A stretch of DNA of 64,000 nucleotides from Cyanobacteria bacterium auto_48_18 (lineage in GTDB: Bacteria; Cyanobacteriota; Vampirovibrionia; Obscuribacterales; Obscuribacteraceae). Positions 37,041-61,117 of this stretch are shown piece after piece. Where the stretch lies: assembly GCA_036170915.1 (NCBI GenBank), contig JAVHQC010000006.1, positions 64,001 through 128,000 on the forward strand, read 5' to 3'. The translations under genes were made by a program, and so were the position numbers. The notes beneath the pieces are model-generated. The model had not been told where the DNA came from. It saw nothing but the letters and a program-made list of their open reading frames with translations, and made no database searches. Position 1 is the first letter of the stretch; each line of letters starts with the position of its first letter.

Positions 37041-38804
37041 TTATTGCGCTTTGCCTAGCACAGCAATCTTTGCTTTTGCCTTTTCAACGCGCGGATCTTG
37101 AACCGGTGCCAACTCGATAAATGTAGTCAACTCTGACTTCGCCCCTTGAGCGTCGCCGAGCTTTTCCATGGTGCTGGCCAGCAAGAAGTGGGCATCAAGG
37201 TTCTTAGGATCAATGGCGGTTGTTTCTTGGTAGACCTTTTTAGCAGAGTCGGCGTCACCTTTGAGCAAAAGCGCAGAGCCCAGGTTTAAACGGGCAGAAA
37301 TTAGCTTAGGGTCTAATTTGACAGCTTCTTTGGCGTGAGCAAATGATTGACTGACGTTGCCAGAGCGAGCGAATGCGTAGCTCAATCGATCATGCATCTG
37401 GGCAGAATTAGGAAACAGGTAAATAGCTTGCTCTAGCAAGTTAATGGCGTTATCAAAATTGCCCGCAGCCACGCATTTGTTAGCCAGCGCACCTAAAATC
37501 ACTTTGTCTTTGGGGTTCAACTGATAAGCCAGTTCAAGCTCTTTAATGCTCTGGTCTTCTTGACCGAGCTTGTTCAGCACCCTGGCATAGTTTGCGTGAA
37601 ACAGGGCATCATTCGGCTTTAGAGTAATCGCTCTTTTATATTGTTCAGCGGCGGCTGTCCAGTCGCCTTTGATCGTCAGCACTGCACCATAATCGGCAAT
37701 GGCGTCGGCATAGTCAGGATCTGTTTCGATGGCGGCTTTGTATTCGGTAATGGCCCCGTCAAAATTGCCTTCGCCCACAAGATTGTTGGCTTTGAGATAG
37801 TGTGCCTCTGCCGCCAAGAACTGCATAACGTTTTCAGGAATCTCTTTTATGCGTTCTTTAGTGGGCGCACCAAGTACGATGTCATTTCCCACCCAGTCAG
37901 ATTTCATTACAGGCGTCTGTTTTTTTGAATTGGAGCTGCCACTGGTTTCTTGTTCAGTCAACTCACGGGCTTTTTGAAAAGCAGTGGTAAGTGGTGCCAT
38001 TCCATCATTTTCTTTAAGCGCTTTGATCAAATTAGATGAAAAAGAACTGCCCCAGGTCATTTGATCTGGTTTGCTTGATGTCAAAATAATGTAGCCCTTG
38101 CCTAGATTTACCTTACTCGAATCTACGCTGGCCTTAGGGTAGGCGGTTTTAGCCCCTTCAGTTAACTCTGCCGCTCCACTGTAGGGTGCCTCAAGCACCA
38201 TGACGATGCGGTCAGTGTTCACGTTTTCTTTCAAGGTCTTCATCAAAGACTGCATTGATATGCAAGTTGAATAGACGTTATCTAAAGCACAATCATATGC
38301 GCTTAAGTAAGTAGTACCGTCGGTGGTGGGAAAACCGTGGGTGGAAATGAAGACAACCACAAGATCATCAGGACCGGCCAGACTTCCGAGCCAGCCTTTA
38401 CCTAGATTGTTTAGGATGTTTTGCCTGGTGGCTTCTTGGTTGATTAGCGTCTTGACGTGGCTTTCCGGAAAACGACCAGCAGTTTCGTCTTTCAGATAGC
38501 TGGCAAAATTACGAGCTGCTGCATCCATTTTTGCATCAGGCGCGTCCAGTCGGTGTTCTCTAAACTTAGCGGTGCCGATTACAACCGCCCATTTCTGTTT
38601 AATGGGGCGATTGCCGGCTGTAGCATGCGGGTCAAGATCTTGAATTTTTGTCCATTGCACCCCTGATGCTGGTGCTTTATTCAAATCGGGCTCGGGGGCG
38701 GCACCACTAGTGGTACTGTTTTGTGCGGCTAGAGTCGGTGTCAAGGCCGTAAGAATCAAGCTTCCGGCCAGGCTTATCAACCTATTCAACAGACAAAACT
38801 TCAA
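37041..38804 (-). CDS. Secreted caspase-like (C14) domain + TPR protein with the catalytic Cys replaced (pseudo-caspase)
   Basis: Signal peptide, KWAVVIG, ATRQNI and ISTHG. LEAPYSG replaces the usual LD.CHSG. C-terminal TPRs. TTG start with an AGGAG RBS. Confidence 0.85.
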   Translation of the reverse strand: MKFCLLNRLISLAGSLILTALTPTLAAQNSTTSGAAPEPDLNKAPASGVQWTKIQDLDPHATAGNRPIKQKWAVVIGTAKFREHRLDAPDAKMDAAARNFASYLKDETAGRFPESHVKTLINQEATRQNILNNLGKGWLGSLAGPDDLVVVFISTHGFPTTDGTTYLSAYDCALDNVYSTCISMQSLMKTLKENVNTDRIVMVLEAPYSGAAELTEGAKTAYPKASVDSSKVNLGKGYIILTSSKPDQMTWGSSFSSNLIKALKENDGMAPLTTAFQKARELTEQETSGSSNSKKQTPVMKSDWVGNDIVLGAPTKERIKEIPENVMQFLAAEAHYLKANNLVGEGNFDGAITEYKAAIETDPDYADAIADYGAVLTIKGDWTAAAEQYKRAITLKPNDALFHANYARVLNKLGQEDQSIKELELAYQLNPKDKVILGALANKCVAAGNFDNAINLLEQAIYLFPNSAQMHDRLSYAFARSGNVSQSFAHAKEAVKLDPKLISARLNLGSALLLKGDADSAKKVYQETTAIDPKNLDAHFLLASTMEKLGDAQGAKSELTTFIELAPVQDPRVEKAKAKIAVLGKAQ

Positions 38805-38828
38805 TTGCTATCTCCTGCTACTCACTAC

Positions 38829-40580
38829 TTATTGATGGGCAAGAGCCACATCTACCGCCATAAGTCCATTGGGGTCGTTAAAGCTTACTTTAACCAAACT
38901 GCCTGACATAATTGTGGTGCTGCGAGCCATTCTTTCTTGACCAGGCACTTGATCAGGCAAAATCACCGGGGTTGGATCGTCCCATGATAATTGCATGCGT
39001 GTGGGCACCAGATCTTTAGCACCAGACATGTCGTCAGAAACATAGGCAGTGAGATATTCAGGCGGGTTAAGAGCGGCTTCGTCAGCTATTTTCTTGGTTG
39101 AATAAAGCAGACTGATTTTTTCAATACCAGGATTGTGATCGAAGGTCAGCCAATCTTTAGGCAATGGGTAGTCGACTTTGGCTTTGAGCTGATTGTCTTT
39201 ACCTGTATCCTTAGATGGGAACAGGATGGCTTTTTTACCACTGCTGCTCTGTTTCATCAAGATGTAAGCAAAGCCGTCTTTGTCTGGTATCACATGAAAG
39301 CGAATTGAATCACCAGATTGAAAAGCCATTTTATTGTTGCAGCGGAAAATCTTGCCTTTGCGATTGAGTTCAATCCAGTAAGACATGCCTGTGCTCTCAG
39401 ATGACACTTTAACTGTGTTCTTAGGAGACTCTGTCATAGGGGTTACAGGCTTAACTGGCTTTACCGTCACGGCTGGTGCCAGTACAACAACTTCTTCCTC
39501 TTTTTTGGGCTTCACCGCAATTTCTTCAGTCGGTTCTTCAACGCCCTTGGCCAGAACTTTTTTGTCTATCCACTTATTGACGAAGCTAAGATCGTCTTTG
39601 CTGAATTGACCGATTTCAAAGATCAAGTGCTCAGCCGAGTTTGACATTACTTTGTCTTTGTTTGGAGTGGCGAGACTATCGAAAAGTTTGAAGGTGGCAA
39701 CTGGCCGCACCAATTTATCGTTCGAACCCATAATGAAGAGTACAGGTGTTTGCTTGATCAGGGTAGCTTGTTCGATATTGCCGTCCATGAATTTTTGGAA
39801 GGCTCTCAGTTCGTTAGGGCTCAGTTTGGTACGGCAAAGTGGGTCGTTAAGCCAGCGCGATCTCAGATCGCTTTTTGTTGTGGCTTTGCCAACTACCATC
39901 GGGCCGATGTCCATGGGTTTGTCGAAGCCAGCAAAAATGGCATGAGCACCGACGTGCAGAGTGACGTCGTTGAAGCGATCACCTGACGGTACTGACGAAA
40001 TCAGTCCGTCAATTAAGTCAGGGTACATGGCGGTGGCGTGAATGCCTATTCCTCCACCCATAGACTCACCCAGCATAATCACAGGAAGACCAGGGTGCAC
40101 TTTGCGAATCTCGAGCAAAGCTCTTTTGATATCCACCAGTGAGCCATCAAAGTCTATCAGCGCATTTTTTTCTTTTGGAATCCACGAACCAAAACCACGC
40201 ATATCAATGGCGTAAGTAATGATGCCCTTTTTCGCCATTTCTCGGCCGAACTCTTCGTAAACACCTTTGTGTAAGCCCAGGCCGTGGATGCACAAGAGCA
40301 CTGCCCTTGGAGTGGCCGTTTCGTCTATCCACCGCAGGCAAGGCACTTTGTCGAGCTTCTGTGTTTTGCCTGTGTTAGCCACAGTGGCCCCGGCCATGGC
40401 AGAGACTGGAAACTGTGCTGACGGGCCGGCTGGCGGAGCATAGTGACTGATTGCGTTTTCAGCGCGAAAGATATCATAGTTGTCGCCGGCGTTCTGGGCC
40501 TTTGCTTGCATCCCGTTAGCCTGGCTAAAAATTATGGTGGCGAGAGCCAGAAATGTATTTGTTTTTTTCATCACTTTCAC
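38829..40580 (-). CDS. Secreted alpha/beta hydrolase (lysophospholipase/Hydrolase_4-like) fused to a DUF4384-like domain
   Basis: Signal peptide, CIHGLG, DMRGFG, GESMGG, GSNDKLV and AEHLI. The C-terminal FQSGDSIRFHV..DGFAYIL..ILFPS..LTFDHNPGIEKI is DUF4384-like. Confidence 0.85.
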   Translation of the reverse strand: MKVMKKTNTFLALATIIFSQANGMQAKAQNAGDNYDIFRAENAISHYAPPAGPSAQFPVSAMAGATVANTGKTQKLDKVPCLRWIDETATPRAVLLCIHGLGLHKGVYEEFGREMAKKGIITYAIDMRGFGSWIPKEKNALIDFDGSLVDIKRALLEIRKVHPGLPVIMLGESMGGGIGIHATAMYPDLIDGLISSVPSGDRFNDVTLHVGAHAIFAGFDKPMDIGPMVVGKATTKSDLRSRWLNDPLCRTKLSPNELRAFQKFMDGNIEQATLIKQTPVLFIMGSNDKLVRPVATFKLFDSLATPNKDKVMSNSAEHLIFEIGQFSKDDLSFVNKWIDKKVLAKGVEEPTEEIAVKPKKEEEVVVLAPAVTVKPVKPVTPMTESPKNTVKVSSESTGMSYWIELNRKGKIFRCNNKMAFQSGDSIRFHVIPDKDGFAYILMKQSSSGKKAILFPSKDTGKDNQLKAKVDYPLPKDWLTFDHNPGIEKISLLYSTKKIADEAALNPPEYLTAYVSDDMSGAKDLVPTRMQLSWDDPTPVILPDQVPGQERMARSTTIMSGSLVKVSFNDPNGLMAVDVALAHQ

Positions 40581-40722
40581 TTAGACAGATATCCTAACAA
40601 GTCACCTACTGCAGCCACTGCCAATTTAGGCGTAACCGGCAAAAAGTAAATGAGCCCCAGCCGAGGGCCAGGGCATCATTATATATGGTTGCCATTAAAA
40701 CCGGCTTGAGCTTAGCTGACCT

Positions 40723-42762
40723 TTATTTTGCCGCTCCGGCTTCTTCTTCGGCGTTAGCTCCGTCTTCAGCCTTAGCGCCATTTTCAGCTTTGGTTTCATG
40801 ATTAGAATTACCGTTGCTGCCTTCAGGCTTAGCTTCTTCGGCATCAACGTCTTTCTCATCTTCGCCTTCAGCGTCAGCTTCGTCTGTTGCTGCCGCTTCG
40901 CCTTCGGCTTTGGCTTCCGTGCCTTCATCTGAGGCGGTTTCAGCCGCTTGCTTCTGCTTGTATTCGTTGCCTTCCTGGTCCATGATGACAACATGGCCGC
41001 GCAGCTCGTTCATAGTCTCTCTGATTTCGGCTTCTGCAGCCTCGGCAGCTACTTGACCGCGCAATTTACCTATGATGTCTTCGGCTTTTGCTTTTGAAGC
41101 GTCAGTTAAGCCTTTGCCCAGATCTTGCATCTGTCTTTCGACTGTGTAGATCAGGCCGTCAACTTCATTGCGCAAATCGGCCATGGCTTTGGTCTTTCTA
41201 TCGCCTTCGGCATTCTCGGCAGCTTCTTTAACCATCCGCTCAATATCTTCTTTGGTCAGGTTAGTGCTGGCTGTGATGGTGACATTTTGTTCTTTGCCGG
41301 TGCCCAGATCTTTAGCCGTTACTTTGACTATGCCGCTGGCATCAATATCGAAAGATACTTCGATGCGTGATGCGCCACGGGCACCAGGGGCGATGCCGTC
41401 CAGTCTGAAATTACCAAGCTTTTTGTTGTCGCGTGCCATGGCCCGCTCACCCTGGAAGATGTAGATATCTACTGCGGTCTGGTTGTCTTCGGCAGTTGAG
41501 CAGAGTTGGGTTTTGTGGCAAGGAATAGTGGTGTTACGCTCCACCAATTTGGCGAAAACACCACCCATGGTTTCAATACCAAGAGAAAGGGGTGTGACAT
41601 CAAGCAGTACCAGGTCTGTTACTTCACCGGCGAGCACACCTGCTTGCAGTGCGGCACCCACTGCCACCACTTCGTCAGGGTTAACGCTTTGATTTGGTTC
41701 TTTACCGCCAGTCAGGCTTTTGACCAGGTCTTTGACGGCAGGTATACGAGTTGAACCGCCAACCAGAACCACTTCATCAATTTCGTTGTAAGTAAGTTTG
41801 GCATCGGCCATAGCCTGTTCGATTGGCTGTTTGCAACGCTCAACGAGAGTGTGAGTGAGCTCGTTAAAACGTGAGCGAGTCAATTTCATGTCAAGGTGCT
41901 TGGGCCCCTGATCGTTGGCTGTAATGAAAGGCAAGGAGATAACTGTTTCAGTCACTGATGAGAGTTCAACTTTTGCTTTTTCTGCAGCTTCAGTTAGACG
42001 TTGTAGAGCTTGTGGATCTTTGCGCAAATCAATAGATTCGGAACTTTGAAATTCTGTGGCAATCCACTGTACAAGCGCGTGATCGAAATCGTCGCCACCC
42101 AGGTGAGTATCACCTGAGGTTGATTTTACTTCGATCAAACCATCACTGACTTCGAGAATGGAAACGTCAAATGTACCGCCGCCAAGATCGAAAACCAGAA
42201 TAGTTTCGTCTTTGCCTTTTTTCTCAACGCCATATGCAAGCGCTGCTGCAGTGGGTTCGTTGATGATGCGCAGCACTTCAAGACCAGCAATAGTGCCTGA
42301 GTTTTTGGTTGATTGTCTTTGTGAGTCATTGAAATAAGCAGGTACTGTAATGACGGCACTGTCTACTTTTTCGCCCAGATATTTTTCAGCATCTTCTTTC
42401 AGTTTGCGCAGAATCATGGCTGAAATTTCTTCAGGCGTGTATTCTTTGTCTGAAATCATCACGCGTACGCCGCCATCTGATGATTCTTTAACTTTATACG
42501 AGACGATTTTGCATTCTTCTGATACTTCGTTAAAGCGTCTGCCGATGAAGCGCTTGATTGAGTAAATGGTATTGACCGGATTGACTACGGCCTGTCTGCG
42601 GGCCAGAAGCCCCACTAGCCGTTCACCAGTTTTATTGAAGGCCACAACTGAAGGTGTGGTGCGACCGCCTTCAGAGTTTGCGATGACGGTGGCGCGGCCA
42701 CCCTCCATCACTGCGACGACAGAGTTTGTTGTTCCAAGATCGATTCCGACTGTTTTTGCCAT
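40723..42762 (-). CDS. dnaK: Hsp70 chaperone DnaK (paralog)
   Basis: [41 protein letters not shown] and NPDEVVA. Confidence 0.95.
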
Positions 42763-42950
42763 GGTTTTTTTCGCGGTTCCTAAGAAACGGTTTTAATATA
42801 GATATAGACTAGCAAAGGCTACCACCAAGCATCGCTCGCTGTAAGACTTAGTGCCAGACTGTAACTTTCTTTTAGTGCAAATGGTGGGAAAAGGGAATAG
42901 AATGGCAGTCAAGAGCAACGCTGTTTTTTGTAGCGGTCAGTAAGAGGAAT

Positions 42951-43274
42951 TTGAGAATGGATCAACAGGGTGAGCAACCGCTGGAGGCAAGACCAGGTAG
43001 GCGGGCCGGACGCATGACCCATAGCGAGCTCAAAACGCTCAAAACTGTGCAGACAAAAGAAGACAGTCCGCTTGTTCAGCTCGTCAAAGGCATTCAAGGT
43101 TTTTGGCTTGGAATATTCAGCACTTTTGCCAGTTTACTTCCCACCAAAAAACATTCGTCCTGTGCGGTAAATGGTCATGTTTTCCCAAAAGGAGCATGGG
43201 ACGGCGATTTTCCCCGCTGCACACATTGCGGAGAGCAAATCACTACGGCTGATCAATTTGGTGGACCCAGATAA
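42951..43274 (+). CDS. Small hypothetical protein with a C-terminal C/H zinc-binding motif
   Basis: SCAVNGHVF...RCTHCGE. The start may be the ATG at 42957. Confidence 0.6.
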   Translation: MRMDQQGEQPLEARPGRRAGRMTHSELKTLKTVQTKEDSPLVQLVKGIQGFWLGIFSTFASLLPTKKHSSCAVNGHVFPKGAWDGDFPRCTHCGEQITTADQFGGPR

Positions 43275-43350
43275 ATTGATTGACTGAGCTCTTGATTCCC
43301 TATACCATACGTATCTATGTAATTGTTTTTGAATCGGTATACCTTCGCTA

Positions 43351-47560: not shown

Positions 47561-47655
47561 CCGGAAATATCTTCATTTTTGTCTCATTTTTCAAAGCGAG
47601 GCTATGGCCCTTGAGCGGGTATAGAAAGCTTGGAGAAGGTGCAGAGGAAGAAATT

Positions 47656-48345: not shown

Positions 48346-48348
48346 AGA

Positions 48349-50301
48349 TTGTCCGAAGCTGATACTAATAAAAAGAAAAAAGATGATACCGCTGCTGGTG
48401 GCGATCTTCCTGGCTCGCCCTCCGGTTACTCATTCTTTGTAAACGAACCAGGTAATGCTGCTTATACATTCGGTATGGATACCTCTCCTCCAGATTGGTT
48501 CCATACAATGACTTCAGGTATTAGTGTCTCTGCACCTTCTCCTTCTCCTAACCAAGCTTCCGGCCCTTCTCAGACTTCTTCAGTACCGCCTTCTGCCGGT
48601 GATGATGGCGACCATGCCAGTATTGCTCAAGATGTGATGTTTTCTCAAGGCGTGACCATTTCTCAAAACGCGGCGCCTACGCAGGAAGCAAAGGTTTTTG
48701 AAAATACTTTTGACTGGCAGCATACTAGTGTGGCTGAAAATGCCACCTATTCAGCAATGGCACACGTTACTCAAGATGCCTTCAATACGCCACATACAAA
48801 TGTGGCCCAGAATGCCAGCTATTCGCAGCAAGCTTCGGTGGCTCAAGACGCATTTGCTACACAGCAATCTAGCGTGCAAGCAAGCGTTGCTCAAAATGCT
48901 TTTTCTCTGGAAGATGCCAGTGTCTCTCAAGATGCCTTCCAAGTGCCTGAGGCTGCACCTTTTACTCAAGCAGAAAACTCTGACGGCACCGCTAAAAGTG
49001 CACCAGATTTGCGAGATTGGGGAGTGGTGCCTCCCACGGAACCGGCTTATGATGCCTATCAGGCTGATGCTGAAGGCTGGCCCAAGCAACGTGGGGCGAA
49101 AAGGCCACGTGAAGTAACTACCGCACCCTTGCACTTATCGGCTGATAAACGCTTTGCCAAGCTAGCGCTCACACCTGAGTTGACGGCCACCATCGATCGA
49201 ATTTACACACTGGTTGACCTCGACTTTAATGGCTATGTTGATTTCTTCGAACTTTCATCAGTGCTGGAAAGCGATCATCTAAGCGAGTCAGAGAAAGGCT
49301 TTGTACGTCTCATTTATGCAGTTGGATGCAAGGTTTTGGCAGAGCGGCCGCCAGTTTCTAATGGTACGGTGCCGGCGTTGACAAAACAAGATTTTACCCT
49401 TGCCTTTGCCTATCAGGTAGCCAGCACCATGGGTAATACCGAGGCAGTCAGCAAAGGTATTCTGCAAAGCGGACAGAGTACGAAAACCGGTCAATTTGTG
49501 GAGTTTAAGCCCTCACTTTATGCCGACCCTGATTATCCTCTGGTTTCAATCAAACCAGCTGCTGTGAAGCTAGGCACTATGGGCGATGCCTATTTCGCAG
49601 CTGGTGTGGGCTCACTGGCTGAAACTCGGCCGCGTGCCATGATGCGCATTATTTGCGAAAATCTTGACCATAGTTTTTCCATTAGCTTTCCCGGTGCTCA
49701 CGGCAAGCCACTAGAAGTGATGCCCCCTCGTCCGGAAGAGCTAATGCGCTATGCCCTGGCGGCCAAGTACGGCTTCTGGTTTCCTTTGTTGGAGAAGGCT
49801 AACGGTATCTATATGGCCCAGACTAATAGATTGGGTGCAAAGCTTGTGGATAAGCGTAATGAGTCATTTTCTCGCGCCGCTGAAGTAATTGAAACTTTAA
49901 CCGGTGCCACTACGGGCACACTGGTCACAGCTGATTGTTTGCCCGCAGATCTTTTGCGCAAGATTGCTGACCTGACTGGTAAAAAACAGCTAGTTATTGC
50001 TGTTTCTTCTGACTTTGTTCCTGATGCTTCGGCATTCGTGGGCACATCTCCTATTGCCAATAAGCCCTATCCGCTCACCGGTATCGATTTGCAGCGTGGC
50101 CAGGTCTTTCTCGCCAGTGTCTACGGCCAGGCTCAGAGCGCACTTGGTGATGAGCCGATGCAATTTAGCACCGAGCAATTTTTACGCTTTTTCAAAGTTG
50201 TTTATTATGAAGAAGACAGTGAGTCAGGCTCAAAGGTCTCTCATTTGATGCGCACTAAAAAGAAACCTAATGCTGGCGGCAATCCATGGAAACAAGCTTG
50301 A
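48349..50301 (+). CDS. Protein with SVAQ(D/N)A repeats, an EF-hand and a degenerate calpain-like (C2) domain
   Basis: EF-hand DLDFNGYVDFFEL. Calpain-like VKLGTMGDAYFAAG and WFPLLEKA, with catalytic residues replaced. Confidence 0.65.
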   Translation: MSEADTNKKKKDDTAAGGDLPGSPSGYSFFVNEPGNAAYTFGMDTSPPDWFHTMTSGISVSAPSPSPNQASGPSQTSSVPPSAGDDGDHASIAQDVMFSQGVTISQNAAPTQEAKVFENTFDWQHTSVAENATYSAMAHVTQDAFNTPHTNVAQNASYSQQASVAQDAFATQQSSVQASVAQNAFSLEDASVSQDAFQVPEAAPFTQAENSDGTAKSAPDLRDWGVVPPTEPAYDAYQADAEGWPKQRGAKRPREVTTAPLHLSADKRFAKLALTPELTATIDRIYTLVDLDFNGYVDFFELSSVLESDHLSESEKGFVRLIYAVGCKVLAERPPVSNGTVPALTKQDFTLAFAYQVASTMGNTEAVSKGILQSGQSTKTGQFVEFKPSLYADPDYPLVSIKPAAVKLGTMGDAYFAAGVGSLAETRPRAMMRIICENLDHSFSISFPGAHGKPLEVMPPRPEELMRYALAAKYGFWFPLLEKANGIYMAQTNRLGAKLVDKRNESFSRAAEVIETLTGATTGTLVTADCLPADLLRKIADLTGKKQLVIAVSSDFVPDASAFVGTSPIANKPYPLTGIDLQRGQVFLASVYGQAQSALGDEPMQFSTEQFLRFFKVVYYEEDSESGSKVSHLMRTKKKPNAGGNPWKQA

Positions 50302-50316
50302 TTGCCACCTTATATT

Positions 50317-50685
50317 TCAAGCTTTGTAGTTGCCGAATTCTTTGATCAAATCGGCCACAGCAGCTTTTAGCTCTTTGCCGGCAGTTAACTCGGCAATTTT
50401 TTGATCTTGCTTGAATGTCGTCAATGCCACTTCTGCTTTCTGCCTGACTCTGTCGTTAGGATGGGCTTGCGAGACAAAATAGAGGGGCGGAATGCTCACC
50501 GGTTTTTGTTCTTTAACCAATTGATCGATAACTATGCTGACTGCTTGATAATCTTCGTTTTTCAGCCCAGCGATTAATGCTTTGAAAAGCATATGATCGA
50601 TTTTATTGAAAATGCCTTTGGTGGCTGTAGAGACCAGATCGGCTACTGAATTAAACTGAGCACCATAATCACTCAAAATGGGCAC
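50317..50685 (-). CDS. Hypothetical helical protein
   Basis: 122-aa ORF filling the gap between genes, with a HEAT-like segment (HPNDRVRQKAEVAL). Confidence 0.6.
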   Translation of the reverse strand: MPILSDYGAQFNSVADLVSTATKGIFNKIDHMLFKALIAGLKNEDYQAVSIVIDQLVKEQKPVSIPPLYFVSQAHPNDRVRQKAEVALTTFKQDQKIAELTAGKELKAAVADLIKEFGNYKA

Positions 50686-50745
50686 CTTAAGAAAGCTGTT
50701 AAACTGTCGGGGCTAAAGAATAGATAGCTGCCATTATGTCATGGG

Positions 50746-53352
50746 TTGATAAGCTTGAGAAGTAAATCACTGCTGCCGGCGTCTGTGAGCCTGCTTTTGT
50801 GGCTTGCCGGTGCCAATGCGTGGGCTTCTCATGATAGTTTTCTCTTTGGTGAACAAGAGAAAATTACTACCTGGGACGGTGCCCTTAAAGCTTCCGACCT
50901 GGGCATCGTTAGCTTGATTAACAGCGGTTGGCAAGCCAATTTAAACCAAGTGTTAGTTGATCAATATCTCGCACGCACTGTACTCAATCAACTTGCTCCC
51001 GACTCAAAATCTCTCAAACAAATTGATAAAGTCAGCAGAGCTGCCGAGGTTCAGTTGCTGACAAAGTTTTCTAATCTTCGTTTGGCCCGGGCCGAAAAGA
51101 TATTGCAATTACATACACTGGCGAGAGCCCAGCAGTTTGACCAGGCTCGCAATCAGCTTATCGCTCTGATTGTTTTTCAGCAGTCATCGACAACGAAAGA
51201 GCCAGGAAAAAAAGAGCCTGACAAAAAAACGCCTGGCAAAGAACAGTCTGGCAAAAAACAGTCTGGCAAGAAACAGCCTGACAAAAAGCAGAACACTGCC
51301 AAGGCAAAGCTTTCTTTCGCTGCCGCCTATCAACTAGCAATGAAATTGGCTAATGATTTAAAAAACAGTGAACCCGAAAACAGCCGCTCTTTATTGACAG
51401 CATTAAACCTGCTTGCACAGTCAGGTGCTAAAGTGAAATCTATGAAGCCTTTCAATTTGGATATCGGCCAGAATGTTGATGCGGAGGCAGAAAGTCTCTA
51501 TTCAGACGGTGTGGCACTGTTTAAGGCGGGGCAATTTGAGAAGGCCGAAGCAAAGTTGCGCCAGGCTCTGACTGCTTATGAGCAGGCTAGTGGTGAAAAG
51601 AGACTGTTGCAAGAGCGCGAAACCCGACTGGCCCTGGCTCAGAGCTTAAGCGGCCTTGACCGTCGTGAAGAGGCTCTGCAACATTTTAGTGCCGTCATTG
51701 AAAATCTAAAACAGTCGCCACTTTCTGCCAGGCCGCAGACCGATGAAACTGTGGAGCAATTCATACGCTTGGCCGAAATTGGTCTGGTTGACTTACCTTT
51801 GCCGCCTGCAAAAAATTACATAATTACACAAGAGCAAAAAGACAAAGTCGTGCATAGCTTGCACGCTCTAGTTTCAGCTGCATATCTGTGCAAAATAGAC
51901 GGCAAGCTTAGCGAGGCTGCCCATCTTTTTCGTAAGGCCAATTTAGTCAGTCAATATTATTTTCCCGAACTAGAAGATTTGCGCTCTAGTGTTTCTTATG
52001 ATTTGGGTGAAACTTTATTTTGGGCTGGCTCCTGCGATGAAGCTGAGCACTATATGACCGAAGCGCTCAATTTGAGGGAAAAGAAAGGCAAAACCGATAA
52101 TGCTGCAGTTGATACACGAAGCACCCTTGGTCGTATTTTGATTGCAGCAGAGCGTGGAGAATTTGCCAGACGCTTTTACCTAGAGACCATGCAGCTTTTG
52201 GCCGCACGAGAGTTTGGCGCACCTGTTGATAATTTTCGAGCGCTTTCGTTTGAGCAATTGACTGAACAACTTTCGCAGCATTATTTTAAAACTGCTCAAA
52301 GGGCTTCAGATACGGCCAGTGAAAGTTTTAAGCGGCAATTCAGCGATGCACTTCAAGGTTACGCCGATGCCTCAATTGCTTGTAAGCGTTACGACCAGGC
52401 CACCATCAGTGATGCTGTTTTGCTTTCTATGCGGGAAGCCAAAGGCGATGAAAAAGACCAGGTTTTAGCCACTTTATGGCAAATGGCCTGGGTGGCTCAG
52501 ATGGCCAATCAATTTGAAGAGTCGGCTAGACTTTATACGCGTATGATAGAAGAGTTTCCCCAGACAAAAATCAGGCAGGTGGCTGACTGGTATCAGTCTC
52601 GCGCCATTGCTCTCGATCTTCTCGGGCGCTATAAAGAAGCCACCAGTGATTTTAAAAAGGCACGCGATGGTTTTAAGATATGTCTTAAAGACGAGCAAGA
52701 TCTTGATGAAATCGACCGTCTCACTTGGACCATCGGTGACATTGAATATAACTTGTTAAGCCGCCATAAAAGCCCACCTTCAGATAGTGATTATCTTAAA
52801 GCCGAACCAACCTGTTTTTGGCAAGCAAAGCGCTTTCCACTAAAAGTATTTGTCGAGAGCAGCACCACCAATGGTTTCGGCGGCGATCTGAAAAAATTGA
52901 TGCTTAAGGCCATGGCGCAATGGACTGATTTTGAAAACTCACCAGTCAAGCTTGCTTTCGTCGACAGCGCTAAAGAGGCTGATGTATATATCGAAAGAGT
53001 GACTTCATATGACGATATTCCTTACAGTTCTGCCGGTCGCACCAGCGTAATTTACGTTAACGGTGATGCTGGTTCAAGAGCACTGGATAAGGCCCATGTG
53101 CGCGTCTACTGCCCATCATACGATGGGGAGTCTTCGGTGCAAAATGGCATTGACAAGATCATCAATCAAGAAATGAGTTCATTTGCAAAAACTCATCTTT
53201 ATACACTTTTTATGCACGAATTTGGTCACGTAATTGGAGTTGGGCACTCTCCCGCCGGGCAAGATGTAATGTACTGGAAGTCATGTTCGTCAGAGCTTTC
53301 TAGCCGTGACCGAGAAAGTATTCGCAAGCTTTATCGTCATAACCAAAAATAA
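50746..53352 (+). CDS. Secreted TPR protein with a C-terminal matrixin (M10-like) metallopeptidase
   Basis: Signal peptide, TPR-like repeats, HEFGHVIGVGHS and Met-turn DVMY. Confidence 0.85.
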   Translation: MISLRSKSLLPASVSLLLWLAGANAWASHDSFLFGEQEKITTWDGALKASDLGIVSLINSGWQANLNQVLVDQYLARTVLNQLAPDSKSLKQIDKVSRAAEVQLLTKFSNLRLARAEKILQLHTLARAQQFDQARNQLIALIVFQQSSTTKEPGKKEPDKKTPGKEQSGKKQSGKKQPDKKQNTAKAKLSFAAAYQLAMKLANDLKNSEPENSRSLLTALNLLAQSGAKVKSMKPFNLDIGQNVDAEAESLYSDGVALFKAGQFEKAEAKLRQALTAYEQASGEKRLLQERETRLALAQSLSGLDRREEALQHFSAVIENLKQSPLSARPQTDETVEQFIRLAEIGLVDLPLPPAKNYIITQEQKDKVVHSLHALVSAAYLCKIDGKLSEAAHLFRKANLVSQYYFPELEDLRSSVSYDLGETLFWAGSCDEAEHYMTEALNLREKKGKTDNAAVDTRSTLGRILIAAERGEFARRFYLETMQLLAAREFGAPVDNFRALSFEQLTEQLSQHYFKTAQRASDTASESFKRQFSDALQGYADASIACKRYDQATISDAVLLSMREAKGDEKDQVLATLWQMAWVAQMANQFEESARLYTRMIEEFPQTKIRQVADWYQSRAIALDLLGRYKEATSDFKKARDGFKICLKDEQDLDEIDRLTWTIGDIEYNLLSRHKSPPSDSDYLKAEPTCFWQAKRFPLKVFVESSTTNGFGGDLKKLMLKAMAQWTDFENSPVKLAFVDSAKEADVYIERVTSYDDIPYSSAGRTSVIYVNGDAGSRALDKAHVRVYCPSYDGESSVQNGIDKIINQEMSSFAKTHLYTLFMHEFGHVIGVGHSPAGQDVMYWKSCSSELSSRDRESIRKLYRHNQK
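51196..51285 (+). repeat. Six imperfect 15-nt coding repeats (KEPGK/KEPDK/KQSGK...)
   Basis: aaagagccaggaaaa aaagagcctgacaaa aaaacgcctggcaaa gaacagtctggcaaa aaacagtctggcaag aaacagcctgacaaa. Confidence 0.8.
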
Positions 53353-53459
53353 AGTTAGGCACTGGTGGTGCCAAATTTGAACACAAGGATTGTAAAGGGT
53401 TAATCTTGCTCAAACGGCAAGCGGCTAAAATGTTGCTTGCCCCTACTTTGAGAATAGAT

Positions 53460-54158
53460 ATGCATTCTGCCAAAACTGATCCTGGCATCCATCCAAGCCC
53501 TGTAGACCGCAACAAGTCGATTATCTGGGCCCGGTATCTAATTGATTCCACCGATTGGTTGATGCTTGCAATCAATGTCAGTCGCGCTGAACCTTCAGAT
53601 CTGCGCAATAGCGTTCTGTCGTCGTCTATACGACTTTTGACACTATCAGTGGTGACTCCAGGTGGCAAGGTTTTGTTTGAAACTATGCTCAAGCCACAGC
53701 AAGTTATACCCAACGAGCTGATTAGTGATCATGGTATTGATCAAGCCGTGGTCTTTAATGCACTGCCTTTCAGTGAGATTGTTATTCACTTGAACAAATT
53801 GTTCGAAGGCAGAAAAGTATTGGCCTGGGATCTCAATGCATTGCAAGAATTGCTAGATGAAGTATCTACGGTTTATGCTCAACCGCAGTTGCCTTTAATC
53901 GGCTTTAGTCTGCGCCCTGAATATGCTCGATTTGTCGGGCAGATGGATACACAAGCCCATTATTCGCCACAAGAATTAAAGGTCGAAGGCAAAGGTGCTA
54001 CCGCCCAGTGTCGTGCTCTGCTATCTACACTTTACGAAATGGCCAGTTCTTCGCAATCTAGCAACAATGCTGTTGCCGGCAACCAAGGTTGGACTGGCGA
54101 ATTTTACCGGCCTAAAGTTTCGGCAACTGAAAAAATCAAAGACTTTCTAGGTCTTTAG
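53460..54158 (+). CDS. Catalytically degenerate DEDDh/DnaQ-like exonuclease-fold protein
   Basis: GKVLFETMLKP..IP..HGI..ALPFSEI..RKVLAW matches the DnaQ-fold scaffold, but the acidic and His catalytic motifs are absent. Confidence 0.6.
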   Translation: MHSAKTDPGIHPSPVDRNKSIIWARYLIDSTDWLMLAINVSRAEPSDLRNSVLSSSIRLLTLSVVTPGGKVLFETMLKPQQVIPNELISDHGIDQAVVFNALPFSEIVIHLNKLFEGRKVLAWDLNALQELLDEVSTVYAQPQLPLIGFSLRPEYARFVGQMDTQAHYSPQELKVEGKGATAQCRALLSTLYEMASSSQSSNNAVAGNQGWTGEFYRPKVSATEKIKDFLGL

Positions 54159-55194
54159 TAATCAATTGCAAGGCCGGATCGGATAAAAACCGCACGGGCA
54201 TAATTGGATCTAATAGAGTGGTGCCGGCACCAAATAGGCCGGTACCATAGTGATTGATTGGCACTCCCAGTCGCCTGTATAGCTCGACGGCAGCGCCAAT
54301 GCAGGTCCACCTATCGCTGGCTATGCGGCCCATAAAGGTACCGAACCAGTCGTAGCCGCTGGCATGAAAAAATTTTTGCAGCCCATTTTTAATAGATTGT
54401 GGCAAAGGCAGATAATCAATTCTTTTTGCTAATCGAATATTCTCTTCAATGGCCCATTTTTTATTGGTCTGAACCATTTCTAAAGCTGCGTCGGCGGCCT
54501 TCTTTTTTTGCTCCGCTGTCCACGGTGTCTTTAAATGCAGGCCTACATAGTGACCTTTGTAGCCCGCACCTGTGAGATCATCAATGTCGTGCAAAATGCA
54601 GCCTTTCGCCATATATGAGCTGAAAAGCATTTTTTTACCGTCCGCCATTTCAATTACTGTTTCGGCATGACCAACACTTTCATGCAAAGTTTTGGCGATA
54701 TTTCCGCTGGTGAGAAGCAAATCGCCTGATTGCAGTACCGCAGCCGGCGGATTAATTAGCGTATTCAAAGGCACGGGCCCATACCCCTGTTTCTTGAACC
54801 GTGCTTTGTTTCTTCTGTAAAGAACGAAAATATAGATCCATAGGGCCAGCTCTGCCAGGGCAAATACATGCACCACTGGATGAATGGCCCTGGCCAAAAG
54901 AGCGACTGAACTCATGAGGATACCGAGCACCACTGGTAGTTGCAGCTCAATGCGCGAGAGCACATCAAAATAAGTCTGTAATAAATGGTCTACTTTTATA
55001 CGAGTTAAAATCAACCAGGCGCCGCTTACCGCTACGCAACCGCCCGATAGCTGCACGTCTAACTGGCCGCTGAAAAATTTCCATGTCAGCCAGATTAAGG
55101 CCAAGTAGCTGATGGTATTGAGGCCTTTTACCAGGCTAAAGTAAGCAGGTGTGCGTTGTACTTCAACGCTGGCGGCTGGTGGACAATAAGACAT
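54136..55194 (-). CDS. Membrane protein with a permuted papain-like (YiiX/YebB/LRAT-type NlpC/P60) domain
   Basis: About 4 TM helices, then LQSGDLLL, GHAETV, GYD and WTCIGAAVELY (His before Cys). Confidence 0.7.
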   Translation of the reverse strand: MSYCPPAASVEVQRTPAYFSLVKGLNTISYLALIWLTWKFFSGQLDVQLSGGCVAVSGAWLILTRIKVDHLLQTYFDVLSRIELQLPVVLGILMSSVALLARAIHPVVHVFALAELALWIYIFVLYRRNKARFKKQGYGPVPLNTLINPPAAVLQSGDLLLTSGNIAKTLHESVGHAETVIEMADGKKMLFSSYMAKGCILHDIDDLTGAGYKGHYVGLHLKTPWTAEQKKKAADAALEMVQTNKKWAIEENIRLAKRIDYLPLPQSIKNGLQKFFHASGYDWFGTFMGRIASDRWTCIGAAVELYRRLGVPINHYGTGLFGAGTTLLDPIMPVRFLSDPALQLITKDLESL

Positions 55195-55354
55195 CGCCCT
55201 AATTTACAGGGCCGTAGAGTTTTTGGCCAGCTTTGCGTGTTCCAGCTTTAACTTCTCAGCTTTACCTTTTAGGGATGAGATGAGAATTCTTCCTAACTTC
55301 TCCATAAGCAGTGTCAGGTTGGTAGAATGCTCAATTTAGGCCCTGCTCTCTCAT

Positions 55355-58015
55355 ATGCGTGATTTTCAAATCAAAAGCAAAACTGCCGCTCTGGCCCTCA
55401 CCGTTCTTTTGAGCGCGTCTGCAGGCAGCTTTGTATTCGGGCAAGAGTCTGTCTGGCAGGCTCTCTTTGCTTCTGGCGCTAATGCCGCGCAGGCTCGTAA
55501 CTGGCCCGAAGCCGAGAAGCACTTAACTGCCGCGTGGAATTCTGCCAACGAATTTGAAAACAGCGATCCACGAAAGGCAAAGACCTTGAGGGCGCTAGCT
55601 GGAGTCTACTCAGCATCAGGCAACTATGTTGCTGCCGAAAGTCATTATCAACAGTTGCTCAAATTAGATGATGGCGCCACCGACGCCGTGCGATTTGTCG
55701 ATTTGCGCGCCCTCAATCATGTGCTCGTGGCCGCAGGCAAATTTGCCGACGCTGAAAAAATCCTTCAACAACAACAAGAGATTGCCGAAAAGCTCAATGA
55801 AAGCAATGCCAGGGCCTCTGTCTGTACCGATCTTGCCATGCTCTATCAGCGCACCGGGTCCATTGGCAAAGTCGAAACCCTGTTGTTACAAGCCATAAAA
55901 CTGAAAGAGCAAGATCACAGCAAGAGCGATGCTGCTGTTCTAATTGCTCAAGAACGTCTGGCTGACTTTTATTTGAGCCAGGGCCGCCTCTCAGAAGCAG
56001 AGACCCTTTATACACTGGCAACGACTCAGCGTCAGATTATTAACGCTAAAGACTTATCTCTTTCAAAAAATCTAGCTAGCCTGGCAGTTTTATATCAGAA
56101 GCAAGGCAAGGATGCTAAGGCCGACAGTACCTCTAAACAAGCCATTGCTGAGGTTGAAAAACAATTTGGACAATCGCAAGAATTGGCTGCCGCTCTTGTT
56201 GTTCGCGGCCGGCTGCTCAGTGAAAATCGCCCTGACCTGGCAATTATTGTTTTGCAAAAAGCACTGCAAATTCGCCTCAAAGAAGCAACTTCCGACGATC
56301 AGCAATTGAGCGCAACACTGCTGGCGCTGGGCAATGCTTATCTTGAGTGTGACAATTATAGAGCGACAGAAAAAAGTGTAAAACAAGCCCTGGCTATTGA
56401 TGAAAGGGCCGCGGGAAGAAAGTCACCGGCAGTGGTGCTCGACTTAACTACCCTGGGGCAGTTGTATCTGCGCCAGGGTAAATATTCACTTTCAGAACAA
56501 GTCTATAAAGAAGCGTTGGAAATCTCCAGGGCCATCCACGGCGATGAGCATCCTGAAGTCGCCACCTGCATGAACAATCTCGCTTTCCTTTACGGCAACA
56601 TGGGCCACCTTGATCAAGCGCAGGCCTTACTGACTCAGGCACTGGCTGTGCGAGAGAAAGTTTATGGTAAATCGCACATTCAAGTAGCGCAAAATCTGGT
56701 CAATCTTGCCGACATTCTGGTGCGGAATGATCAAAAATCTAAAGCGGTACCACTTCTGGTGCGTGCTCTAGCAATTGAAGAGCAATCGCTTGGCGCTGAC
56801 CATGACTATGTAGCGCTTATATTGCGCGAACTGATTGATATCATGAAAGATGATAATGCCCAGTTAGACGCGGCCGAACAATACGCCAGGAGCCTGTTGG
56901 CCCGTGATCAGCGCCTCACCAGTGACAGTAATTTGTTAGTCGCTCGTGATCTCGAAATTCTCGCTAAAGTGCTTATTTCTGCAAATAAAACTGCTGAAGC
57001 AAAACCGCTAATTGCCCAAGCGCGGTCAATTGAAAAAGCAGAGAAGGGTCTTTATTTTGAGCAGAATCAGCCGGCGGTTGTCGCTGCTCCTGCCGGAGCA
57101 AAACCTATTCAAGATAAATGGGCGCTGGTAGTAGGTATCAGTAGTTTCCAAGATTCGTCGTTGAATTTGCGATTTGCCGCTAAAGACGCCATCGACTTCA
57201 AAAATTTCCTCATTACTCGTGCCAATTTTCAGCCTGACCATGTCAAATTGATTACCGATCAAGACGCCACCCGGTCAAATATTGTGGCCCTACTTGGCGA
57301 CAAGTGGTTGAAACATGTCGTCAAGAAGGATGATATGGCTGTGATTTATATTTCCAGCCACGGTACTCAGGCCGCCAGCCAGGTTGGCGGAGCCAATTTT
57401 ATTGTGCCTTATGAAGGTAACGCCCAGAACATCGTCTTTTCTGGTATTCCCATGCAGTGGCTGGTGGCCGGTCTTAAAGATCTGGTGCATTCTGATCGTA
57501 TCTGTGTGTTTTTAGACGTTTGCCACGGTGGCGCGGCTGCCAACAGCGAAGTGCTCAAAGAAAAGTCTGCCTATTCAGAGCCTGCTGAAACTGCGCAATC
57601 ACCTGGAGAATCTGGTGGTAAGGGCATCTATCGCATTCGCAATATTACTGCCGAGACCTTAGTCTCGCCGCCGGGGCAAATTGTGGTTGCAGCCAGTCAA
57701 GCCGATCAGATATCCTGGGAGTCAAAGCGCTATTCTAATGGCGTGTTTACTCGGCGGCTGATAGAAGGTCTGACCTTAAACGGTGCCGACACTACTCTCA
57801 ACCAGGCTTTTAATTATTTAAAAGAGCAGGTTGAAGAGGAAGTATTGAGAGATCGCACTCAATTGCAAGCACCGGTGGTAGTACCAAAACTCGGTCTCGA
57901 TAATGAACCAAAATTAGGCACTAAACCGGCAAATCCACGTAGCCCTGCAGAAATTTTAGCTAAGCCCTCAGGCACTAAGGCATCCAGCTCATCGGTCACT
58001 GTTAAGAAGCAATAG
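55355..58015 (+). CDS. Secreted TPR + caspase-like (C14) protease with an intact His/Cys dyad
   Basis: Signal peptide, kinesin-light-chain-type TPRs (HPEVATCMNNLAFLY), KWALVVGIS, ISSHG, LDVCHGG and NGVFT..LIEGL. Confidence 0.88.
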   Translation: MRDFQIKSKTAALALTVLLSASAGSFVFGQESVWQALFASGANAAQARNWPEAEKHLTAAWNSANEFENSDPRKAKTLRALAGVYSASGNYVAAESHYQQLLKLDDGATDAVRFVDLRALNHVLVAAGKFADAEKILQQQQEIAEKLNESNARASVCTDLAMLYQRTGSIGKVETLLLQAIKLKEQDHSKSDAAVLIAQERLADFYLSQGRLSEAETLYTLATTQRQIINAKDLSLSKNLASLAVLYQKQGKDAKADSTSKQAIAEVEKQFGQSQELAAALVVRGRLLSENRPDLAIIVLQKALQIRLKEATSDDQQLSATLLALGNAYLECDNYRATEKSVKQALAIDERAAGRKSPAVVLDLTTLGQLYLRQGKYSLSEQVYKEALEISRAIHGDEHPEVATCMNNLAFLYGNMGHLDQAQALLTQALAVREKVYGKSHIQVAQNLVNLADILVRNDQKSKAVPLLVRALAIEEQSLGADHDYVALILRELIDIMKDDNAQLDAAEQYARSLLARDQRLTSDSNLLVARDLEILAKVLISANKTAEAKPLIAQARSIEKAEKGLYFEQNQPAVVAAPAGAKPIQDKWALVVGISSFQDSSLNLRFAAKDAIDFKNFLITRANFQPDHVKLITDQDATRSNIVALLGDKWLKHVVKKDDMAVIYISSHGTQAASQVGGANFIVPYEGNAQNIVFSGIPMQWLVAGLKDLVHSDRICVFLDVCHGGAAANSEVLKEKSAYSEPAETAQSPGESGGKGIYRIRNITAETLVSPPGQIVVAASQADQISWESKRYSNGVFTRRLIEGLTLNGADTTLNQAFNYLKEQVEEEVLRDRTQLQAPVVVPKLGLDNEPKLGTKPANPRSPAEILAKPSGTKASSSSVTVKKQ

Positions 58016-58023
58016 GAGAAATT

Positions 58024-59058
58024 ATGAAACTGGTAAATAGCGTTGGCAACGGTGGCAGAAATATGTTTACTACTCGTCGAACAGTTGCCGCCGCCTTGCT
58101 TGTGGCGCTGCTGGCTGCCTCGCTTCCTGTTGCTCCGGCTCAAGCATTCTGGCCATTTTCAAAGAAACATTCTGCCGACAACAAACGTAAGAAAAGAAAT
58201 TTGCACGGCACACAAGTTGGCCTCGTGCCTGGTAATCCACCAGCAATTTACTGGCAGGCGAAAAAACCTAAGGCCGTAATTTTGGCACTGCACGAGCTTG
58301 GTCTTTATAGTGGCTGCTTCGACGACCTCGGCCAGCGTATGGCTGAAAAAGACATTTCTGTCTACGCCATTGACTTGCGCGGCTTTGGTGGATGGCGTGA
58401 AATGGACAAAAAAGAAAGCAAAATGGATTTGAAAAAGACATTAGCTGACGTCAAAGGTTCTTGTGAAGAAATACGCAAACTTCATCCGGACGTACCTGTT
58501 TTCATTCTCGGTGAGGCCATGGGTGGTGCTCTGGCACTGCAAGCCGCAAGCGAATATCCAACCTTAATTAACGGCATCATCTCAGCTGCCCCTGGTGGCG
58601 ATCACTTTAAGTCAGTGAACAATTTCATGAACGTTGGATTAGGCATGGCTGTAGGCTCTAAGCATGCGTTTGGTTTGGGCGAAAAACTGATGGATGTGGC
58701 CACACCAAAGCAAGAATTGAAAGCAGCACTTAGTGACGACGACATGGTGCGCATGGACGTTACTGCAGGCGAAATGGTGGCCTGCCAGTTCTTTATGTAC
58801 AAGACTAAAGCGATGGCAAAAGAAATTAAAAACATGCCTGTGCTGATTGTGCACGGCGACAAAGATGGCGAATCTAAGCTTGTTGGTTCAGAAAGCGTCT
58901 ATAAAAATCTGGCCACTAAAGACAAAAAGTTTGTGCGTTTGCCAGAAGGCGACCACTACACCTTTGAAGATGTAAAAGTGGCAGATGATGCTTTTGGCAC
59001 AGCTCTGGCGTTCATTGACGAACATACCAGCGGCAATGCACCGGCTAAAGCGGAATAG
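58024..59058 (+). CDS. Secreted alpha/beta hydrolase-fold protein with the nucleophile Ser replaced by Ala
   Basis: Signal peptide, ALHELG, DLRGFG, GEAMGG, GDKDG and GDHY. It is a paralog of 38829-40580. Confidence 0.85.
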   Translation: MKLVNSVGNGGRNMFTTRRTVAAALLVALLAASLPVAPAQAFWPFSKKHSADNKRKKRNLHGTQVGLVPGNPPAIYWQAKKPKAVILALHELGLYSGCFDDLGQRMAEKDISVYAIDLRGFGGWREMDKKESKMDLKKTLADVKGSCEEIRKLHPDVPVFILGEAMGGALALQAASEYPTLINGIISAAPGGDHFKSVNNFMNVGLGMAVGSKHAFGLGEKLMDVATPKQELKAALSDDDMVRMDVTAGEMVACQFFMYKTKAMAKEIKNMPVLIVHGDKDGESKLVGSESVYKNLATKDKKFVRLPEGDHYTFEDVKVADDAFGTALAFIDEHTSGNAPAKAE

Positions 59059-59089: not shown

Positions 59090-59164
59090 TGGTGCACGAG
59101 GAGAGATTCGAACTCTCGACCAAGCGCTTAAGAGGCGCGTGCTCTACCGCTGAGCTACTCATGC
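59090..59164 (-). tRNA. tRNA-Lys (anticodon CTT) with encoded CCA
   Basis: Minus strand GCATGAGTAGCTCAGCGGTAGAGCACGCGCCTCTTAAGCGCTTGGTCGAGAGTTCGAATCTCTCCTCGTGCACCA folds as a cloverleaf with a TTCGAAT T-loop. Confidence 0.95.
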
Positions 59165-61103: not shown

Positions 61104-61117
61104 AAAGTTGTGTCTGA

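Follow-up and report, generated by a model that had tools for sequence, protein, structure and literature searches.

Two pairs of adjacent genes, each joining a caspase-like gene to an alpha/beta-hydrolase gene, were analysed in a 64,000-nucleotide stretch of the genome of Cyanobacteria bacterium auto_48_18 (Obscuribacteraceae; contig JAVHQC010000006.1, positions 64,001 to 128,000 of the forward strand). The whole stretch is called the window, and positions are window positions unless a contig is named. In each pair one partner has lost catalytic residues and is kept as a selected pseudoenzyme, and the pairs are apparently a conserved, undescribed variant of caspase-hydrolase coupling. From gene content, catalytic states, conserved adjacency, purifying selection, a shared motif and protein folds, we propose, with a rough probability of 0.5, that these genes belong to an exported lysine-specific caspase network, in which the DUF4384 domain would be the substrate tag and the dead partners would be regulators, through putative cleavage and binding.

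Gene pairs and catalytic states

The genes of pair A (cA, hA) and pair B (cB, hB) are as follows (TPR: tetratricopeptide repeat; MGL: monoacylglycerol lipase):
37041..38804, minus strand: cA, predicted exported pseudo-caspase (profile search and reading of the dyad), C14 fold at about residues 71-302, C-terminal TPRs
38829..40580, minus strand: hA, predicted exported MGL-like hydrolase with a C-terminal DUF4384 Ig-like domain (about residues 396-583)
55355..58015, plus strand: cB, predicted exported TPR_12-repeat caspase, His669, Cys723 and both S1-pocket Asp residues intact
58024..59058, plus strand: hB, predicted exported MGL-fold protein with invariant Glu91, Ala165, Cys254, Asp281 and His311

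The order is hA then cA at locus A (gap of 24 nucleotides) and cB then hB at locus B (gap of 8 nucleotides), and GGAG elements resembling ribosome-binding sites lie 5' of both downstream gene starts. A promoter scan was at chance level (4 found, 6.5 expected). Both caspases scored above the gathering score of Peptidase_C14 (PF00656, 21.4), cA with 44.3 bits (E 2e-11) and cB with 76.6 bits (E 3e-21). The hydrolases matched Hydrolase_4 (PF12146; hA E 1e-33, hB E 3e-34), and hA also matched DUF4384 (PF14326; E 6e-9, 36.3 bits, cut-off 27).

In cA, His156 is kept, Pro207 (CCC, codon 38184-38186) occupies the Cys position, and both S1-pocket Asp residues are gone; in cB the dyad consists of H669 and Cys723 (TGC at 57521). 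The site of hA is complete (oxyanion H99-G100, GESMGG with S173, D288, H318). In hB the oxyanion loop reads H90-E91 and Ala165 (GCC at 58516), in a fixed GEAMG motif, stands at the nucleophile position, with D281 and H311 retained. The caspase domains of cA and cB are 31% identical and the two hydrolases 35%; the repeats are of the TPR_11/19 type in cA versus TPR_12 in cB. An earlier note on this DNA had listed coordinates, gaps, codons, domains and motifs of the four open reading frames (ORFs), and all were reproduced exactly by re-reading and profile searches.

A crude signal-peptide script passed 53/55 hA, 74/81 cA, 49/60 hB and 25/32 cB sequences, over a baseline of 1244/4059 ORFs of the genome; no internal transmembrane segment was seen in the four sequence sets.

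Pair B across the order

The survey covered 107 genomes of the order, whose named relatives are Ca. Obscuribacterales. Orthologs of hB, split from paralogs by a gap in scores (E 7e-73, then 4e-64), occurred in 61 of the 107 genomes and 20 genera, and all 61 loci were fetched. At identities down to 39%, the nucleophile position is Ala in 61/61 (all four codons are used), the oxyanion motif is HE in 60/60 visible sequences, Asp and His are present in 60/60 visible sequences, and Cys254 in 61/61; the GxSxG and HG oxyanion motifs of active Hydrolase_4/MGL enzymes are absent from hB. The hB model (predicted local distance difference test, pLDDT, 91) has the MGL fold, and Foldseek matched it to human and bacterial MGL (E 1e-16, TM 0.78, about 20% identity). 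When the hB alignment was used as a pattern to scan 185,579 genomes, 60 loci were found, most of them titled Obscuribacterales, Melainabacteria or Cyanobacteria and a few under other or generic titles.

A TPR-caspase lies directly upstream of hB in 57/61 loci; in the remaining four it lies 3.3 kb away (one locus), is cut off by a contig end (one), is unlinked (one) or is missing within about 10 kb (one). The cB dyad is invariant where visible (Cys 58/58, His 57/57), and the two S1-pocket Asp residues are found in 65/65 and 63/63 filled rows, so that cB reads as a predicted active protease. The basic N-terminal tail of hB (window 58024-58200) ends at Arg58, which is conserved in 55/61 orthologs; an aromatic FWPF/WWFF start follows the signal peptide in 32/61. 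This tail is possibly both a membrane anchor and a processing site.

Pair A across the order

A search with the cA domain returned 120 matches, spread over 83 of the 107 genomes; the distinct A loci read number 83 and come from 71 genomes in 27 genera. Five of these loci have a complete dyad. In the other 78 it is broken: 20 keep His alone, 8 keep Cys alone and 50 have lost both. Nine different residues occur at the His position and seven at the Cys position, where Pro stands in 25/83. The first S1-pocket Asp occurs in 0/91 rows of the A clade and the second position is Q, E or D in 47, 42 and 2 rows; the pocket Asp is lost even where His and Cys are both present. The combination of His-Cys dyad and acidic S1 pocket that marks active proteases is therefore missing from cA. 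In the caspase tree the A clade has a long stem and full support.

An ORF with DUF4384 lies directly upstream of cA in 82/83 loci, the sole miss being a locus cut by a contig end. DUF4384 is fused to the hydrolase in 75 loci and is a separate gene in 4, where hydrolase, DUF4384 and caspase form three genes; in 4 more the hydrolase was out of reach. The A-type hydrolase has Ser in 80/80 and Gly in 58/58 filled rows (duplicates included) and is predicted to be catalytic. The prediction of conserved adjacency within each pair is thus borne out for both pairs.

Of the other genomes of the family, 85 of 96 gave a match to the DUF4384 profile; 204 genomes from different families of the same class gave none. 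The model of the hA domain is all-beta (pLDDT 73), with a best Z of 8.3 to filamin Ig domains (root-mean-square deviation 2.5 over 94). An Atlas search with it matched DUF4384; Foldseek returned no match at E 0.001, and the cA domain sequence had no match in the PDB below E 0.18.

Three further features bear on pair A:
38262..38264, minus strand: cA Cys181, specific to the A clade, in 77/81 and absent from the four three-gene loci
40654-40674: terminator-like hairpin between dnaK and hA
40723..42762, minus strand: dnaK paralog, one of three, directly upstream of pair A

In aligned pairs, cA Cys181 is conserved in 58/62 and hA Cys414 in 61/62; nine pairs have no Cys at the three local positions other than Cys181. 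An interchain disulfide between the two was considered and is kept as a weak lead, given sparse DsbB and VKOR: family-wide searches found DsbB in 0/51 and VKOR in 15/51 genomes, and in this genome searches for DsbB, VKOR and Thioredoxin_4 found none. Exported cysteine proteases would be well served by an envelope that oxidises only weakly.

In 33 of the 35 top-scoring genomes a dnaK on the same strand directly adjoins pair A on its upstream side, the other two being at a contig end or unlinked; in one genome (G018) dnaK is back to back with cB. Extra stand-alone DUF4384 genes adjoin pair A at several loci, often on the opposite strand (L147/L314 in G062, L136, L152, L146). In G062 an intact caspase also adjoins pair A, and in G071 and G072 an extra hydrolase lies upstream.

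The genome holds eight caspases of this family, six of them (cB and five others) with His and Cys. The two without a dyad are cA and a C12 paralog, each directly 3' of an intact hydrolase-DUF4384 gene; the latter forms a second pair A (G000:C12:8145-11671; caspase dyad Ser/Ala), which adjoins carotenoid-like genes and a gene that looks by eye like a rhodopsin. Among ten related hydrolases, Ser is present in nine, and hB alone is without it. Two stand-alone DUF4384 proteins are encoded (G000:C34:75899-76810 and C6:10671-11732); the C34 protein has a signal peptide and two motif copies, GAKGL near its N-terminus and GSKDL in the loop.

Selection on the dead partners

The ratio of nonsynonymous to synonymous substitution rates (dN/dS), computed against the two closest genomes, was 0.024/0.024 for cA, 0.032/0.025 for hB, 0.015/0.032 for hA and 0.10/0.09 for cB, so that both dead partners lie below the intact cB; more distant pairs were mostly saturated at synonymous sites. 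Mean identity across 16 genera was 0.54 (hB), 0.49 (hA), 0.53 (cA) and 0.56 (cB), with no less conservation in the dead partners than in the live ones. Because purifying selection on them is strong (dN/dS about 0.03; 0.02-0.03 in the values above), they are pseudoenzymes, as had been suggested from the first reading of the window, and not errors.

A lysine motif shared by caspases and DUF4384

An acidic S1 pocket gives specificity for Arg or Lys, and many C14 members process themselves in the linker between subdomains. As stated in the available text of PMC5756287, C14 proteases other than animal caspases cleave after Arg or Lys via an acidic pocket. Candidate sites of this kind were found at three places in the window:
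38148..38156, minus strand: cA inter-subdomain linker G217-A218-K219, candidate trans-processing site
39009..39023, minus strand: hA DUF4384 loop G520-A-K522-D-L524, candidate caspase site with Lys at P1
57614..57628, plus strand: cB linker G754-G-K756-G-I758, candidate self-processing site

The pattern G-[ASK]-K-[DE]-[LIV] is present in the DUF4384 extension of 82/82 A pairs, and its G and K show no variation over 62 aligned rows; the loop has pLDDT <50 in the Ig-like sandwich model. A matching Lys motif in the linker, which follows the catalytic Cys, was found in 62 of 76 parsed cA sequences, as GAKAL or GAKSL in most orthologs, and in 53/58 cB sequences. Lys stands at the linker spot in 8/8 caspases of this genome, and K-[GAS]-[LI] was read by eye in 26/28 caspases from five genomes without B (16/33 rows of caspases from B-less genomes with a stricter scripted pattern). 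Across the background of 4059 ORFs there are 15 hits to the strict motif, and caspase or DUF4384 proteins account for 6; the motif is present in 80/150 DUF4384 representatives versus 24/4059 ORFs. Caspase matches (matches, not copies) number 0-2 in five genomes without this DUF4384 type versus 7-22 in five with it.

Among 30 loci taken from a phylum-wide DUF4384 search, caspase fusions number 16, and their linker reads R-G in 14 and RKG in 2. The cyanobacterial DUF4384 loop reads [TS]R[GSN] in 16/18 caspase-linked loci versus 1/12 unlinked ones, and the Lys motif was found among the 30 only at this genome's own locus. Fusions of DUF4384 to caspases with intact dyads also occur in Obscuribacterales. 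We infer from these sequence patterns that DUF4384 carries the recognition site of co-resident caspases; that the dead caspase cA keeps the linker motif suggests processing in trans.

Relation between the two pairs

The earlier note had read the two loci as reciprocally inactivated. It is correct that no pair with two dead partners was seen; this reflects two gene lineages, each with its own event, and not many independent switches or a repeated anti-correlation. The proposed check on catalytic states showed the B changes to be fixed and the A dyad to drift, to the point of being intact, beside an intact hydrolase, in 5/83 loci.

Nearly all genomes with the B hydrolase (59/61) also have A. The converse does not hold: 24/83 A genomes are without hB, 12 of them at least 90% complete and including three of six genomes in one genus, and in five of these 12 a profile search for hB gave paralog-level scores only. 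Of 36 genomes tabulated (part of the 59 with both pairs, picked for the own genus and larger contigs), 19, in four genera, carry pairs A and B on a single contig in head-to-head orientation, with 8-75 kb between matches, and in G076 and G077 dnaK alone separates them. The head-to-head layout and the separation by dnaK alone indicate that the A-B neighbourhood is old in part of the family. Linkage between A and B decays and within-pair linkage does not; A has more than one copy in many genomes, and B is single-copy.

Other caspases in five A-only genomes were read with His-Gly and Cys in 27/28, and with His-Ala in one. An obligate A-B partnership in trans, as first envisaged, is unlikely given the A-only genomes and the many other intact caspases that could act on A; cB is likely one candidate protease for pair A among several, rather than a dedicated partner. 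In the caspase tree (37 rows) cB joins paralog C37 (support 98-99), not cA. The approximately unbiased (AU) test gave p 0.17 for an A+B clade of caspases and p 0.55 for one of hydrolases, values that favour neither independent origin of the two pairs nor duplication of one ancestral pair.

Proposed mechanism

In the proposed network, intact caspases such as cB would cut after Lys in G-x-K-x-L loops, which would make substrates of the intact lipase hA, through its DUF4384 tail, and of the dead caspase cA, through its linker. Each dead partner would bind and regulate its neighbour: cA might be a scaffold or guard of hA, and hB a lipid-binding regulator of cB. Cleavage of the tail may affect lipase activity, and Lys522 of hA is a named residue that makes the function of DUF4384 directly testable.

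Several points weigh against this network. The G-x-K-x-L motif was found in 0/60 hB sequences, and the window's own cA linker, GAKTA, is off consensus. The motif is also found N-terminally in stand-alone DUF4384 proteins and could be structural. Since cA has lost the S1 Asp, it could not act as a classical substrate trap for the Lys loop. The cyanobacterial fusions, with their long Arg/Gly-rich loops, mostly belong to one orthologous family, so the K-to-R comparison comes close to a single data point. Export of all four proteins is presumed from the crude signal-peptide script.

A more detailed version is offered tentatively, as a long shot: an extracytoplasmic cascade of Obscuribacteraceae, in which a lipase-fold receptor, hB, would bind a mono-acyl or lyso-lipid signal and switch on cB; active caspases would cut G-x-K-x-L tags on DUF4384 domains and on the cFLIP-like dead caspase, so that hA, which would remove the signal, is released or switched. 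If this were true, DUF4384 would serve caspases generally as a substrate tag, with a loop that follows the P1 preference of the protease across phyla (Lys here, Arg in cyanobacteria).

Alternative explanations

hB may be a repurposed enzyme instead of a dead one. Its kept His-Asp and Glu91, perhaps with Cys254, would do other chemistry, and cB would process or position it. Glu91, Ala165, Cys254, Asp281 and His311 are fixed in the 61 orthologs, unlike the drifting cA dyad, and Arg58, closing the basic tail, could be a processing site. Precedent exists in tomato MKS1, described in the accessible part of PMC3531081 as a decarboxylase with Ala87 at the nucleophile position. A fixed ligand-binding pocket would, however, predict equal conservation, and no substrate or biosynthetic neighbours were found at the loci examined. 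We consider this rather improbable; it can coexist with the proposed network. Either way, the active site of this MGL-fold protein is fixed as Glu/Ala, and hB is either a receptor for lipids or a new catalyst.

The pairs might also involve no proteolysis, being co-exported operons in which lipolytic enzymes are scaffolded by TPRs and caspase folds and the G-x-K-x-L motif has a role in structure or docking. Pair A persists without a dyad in 78/83 loci, and the genome encodes many predicted exported TPR-hydrolase fusions, so a TPR-hydrolase partnership alone could explain the adjacency. Such an account leaves unexplained both the same motif in the protease linker and in the DUF4384 loop and the joint cyanobacterial K-to-R switch, and we regard it as doubtful.

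Poorer still are the prospects of a strict reciprocal system, a four-part unit acting in trans with cB as dedicated protease for hA and with cA and hB as matching decoys. The head-to-head layout, the dnaK-only gap and the presence of A in 59/61 hB genomes speak for it. Against it stand the 24/83 A genomes without hB (12 at least 90% complete), duplicated A beside single B, an A-B linkage that decays unlike that within pairs, and the plentiful other intact caspases.

It is very unlikely that the pairs form a death module of the LcCaspase-LcHydrolase type, serving against phages or in conflict, with the caspase turning on a toxic hydrolase zymogen. The gross layout, a caspase adjoining an alpha/beta-hydrolase, is the same in the parts of PMC12642450 that are available, and cB matches the PADLOC 'caspase' and 'TPR' models. 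Nearly every pair nevertheless contains a non-catalytic partner, signal peptides are present on the proteins, the genes are inherited vertically, in synteny with housekeeping neighbours, neither hydrolase matches PADLOC, and the NCBIfam EACC1-type caspase model scores 54-64 against a 140-bit cut-off.

Assembly error in the Pro and Ala codons, which the earlier note had named as a refutation, or decay of the genes is practically ruled out: nothing was found in its favour, and the same residues recur in independent genomes through different codons, in open frames with dN/dS about 0.03.

Other features of the window

The remaining features are:
48349-50301, plus strand: gene with a low-complexity N-terminus, an EF-hand-like segment and a weak calpain-like domain (Peptidase_C2, E 0.006)
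50746-53352, plus strand: predicted exported TPR protein whose C-terminal domain is a matrixin (M10) zinc protease, HExxHxxGxxH intact
59090-59164, minus strand: tRNA-Lys(CTT), directly after hB
60408-63112, minus strand: amino-acid-permease-like gene, then a shorter gene repeating its C-terminal part

The calpain-like domain appears from its sequence to be without the catalytic Cys and is possibly another pseudo-protease. About 400 nucleotides beyond tRNA-Lys(CTT) a threefold GAATCGAAGAA-type repeat was seen.

Comparison with known systems

Literature searches gave no description of these caspase-lipase pairs, in agreement with their presumed undescribed status; subscription papers and supplements were outside coverage, and the supplements of PMC12642450 and PMC8195603 may list kin.

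The closest described system is LcCaspase-LcHydrolase (Evans et al. 2025, PMC12642450), in which, according to the accessible text, an active protease cuts the hydrolase twice to produce a death effector in Actinobacteria and Pseudomonadota. Both systems have a caspase-like gene adjoining an alpha/beta-hydrolase gene, and both cuts would fall between a basic P1 and a small residue (between R and G there, versus K and D or K and G proposed here). The pairs described here differ, as far as the published parts can be compared, in a non-catalytic partner, signal peptides, the MGL/Hydrolase_4 type, a candidate site within DUF4384 and vertical inheritance. An active protease beside a complete hydrolase is found in no B pair and, judged by the dyad, in 5/83 A loci, all without the S1 Asp. 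In the Evans module the N-terminal half of the hydrolase has two conserved R-G sites; the only conserved RG seen here is that of the general DxRGxG motif.

Csx29-Csx30 of type III-E CRISPR (10.1101/2022.08.17.504292) shares, in the portion of that preprint available, a TPR-bearing caspase-fold protease that cuts a hairpin in the C-terminal domain of its substrate, and one group of Csx30 C-terminal domains is DUF4384. As the same portion has it, Csx29 is instead a CHAT protease, is switched on by CRISPR target RNA and, in the characterised system, cuts between Met and Lys; no CRISPR link was seen here.

Bacterial pseudo-orthocaspases (PMC6426788, partial text) likewise have a dyad-less C14 fold in a separate clade, some with TPR or DUF4384. 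The cyanobacterial YS/YN forms keep an acidic S1 pocket there, whereas cA has lost it and varies over at least nine residues at the His position and at least seven at the Cys position; no Tyr was found at the His position in the 83 A loci. The accessible text of that paper describes no lipase pairing for them.

The type II metacaspase AtMC4 processes itself at Lys225 (10.1101/2020.03.09.983940) and the orthocaspase MaOC1 at Arg219 (PMC7475262), as given in the available sections of both reports. They share with the present caspases a basic linker residue for self-processing, proposed here, and an S1-pocket Asp two residues before the catalytic Cys; as described in those sections, they have neither TPR, export nor a hydrolase partner.

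For the dead caspase, cFLIP, which is cleaved in trans by caspase-8, offers a parallel: it keeps a linker site and regulates its partners, which is how cA may work. It is named as an inactive caspase in PMC8195603. The parallel is analogy only, with homology limited to the shared fold, and the death-effector domains are not in cA.

Among hydrolases, hB shares the fold of monoacylglycerol lipases (PDB 6qe2, 3jw8, 6eic, 4zwn) but departs from them at the active site, with Ala replacing Ser and Glu replacing the oxyanion Gly, and hA differs from them by carrying DUF4384. Non-serine proteins of the alpha/beta-hydrolase fold such as MKS1 resemble hB, to the extent of the accessible reports, in having the fold without the nucleophile Ser. 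The bacterial caspase systems in the comparison papers serve, in the text available, phage defence or cell death; an expanded, vertically inherited, predicted exported caspase set with dedicated pseudoenzyme partners would point to regulatory proteolysis in the envelope.

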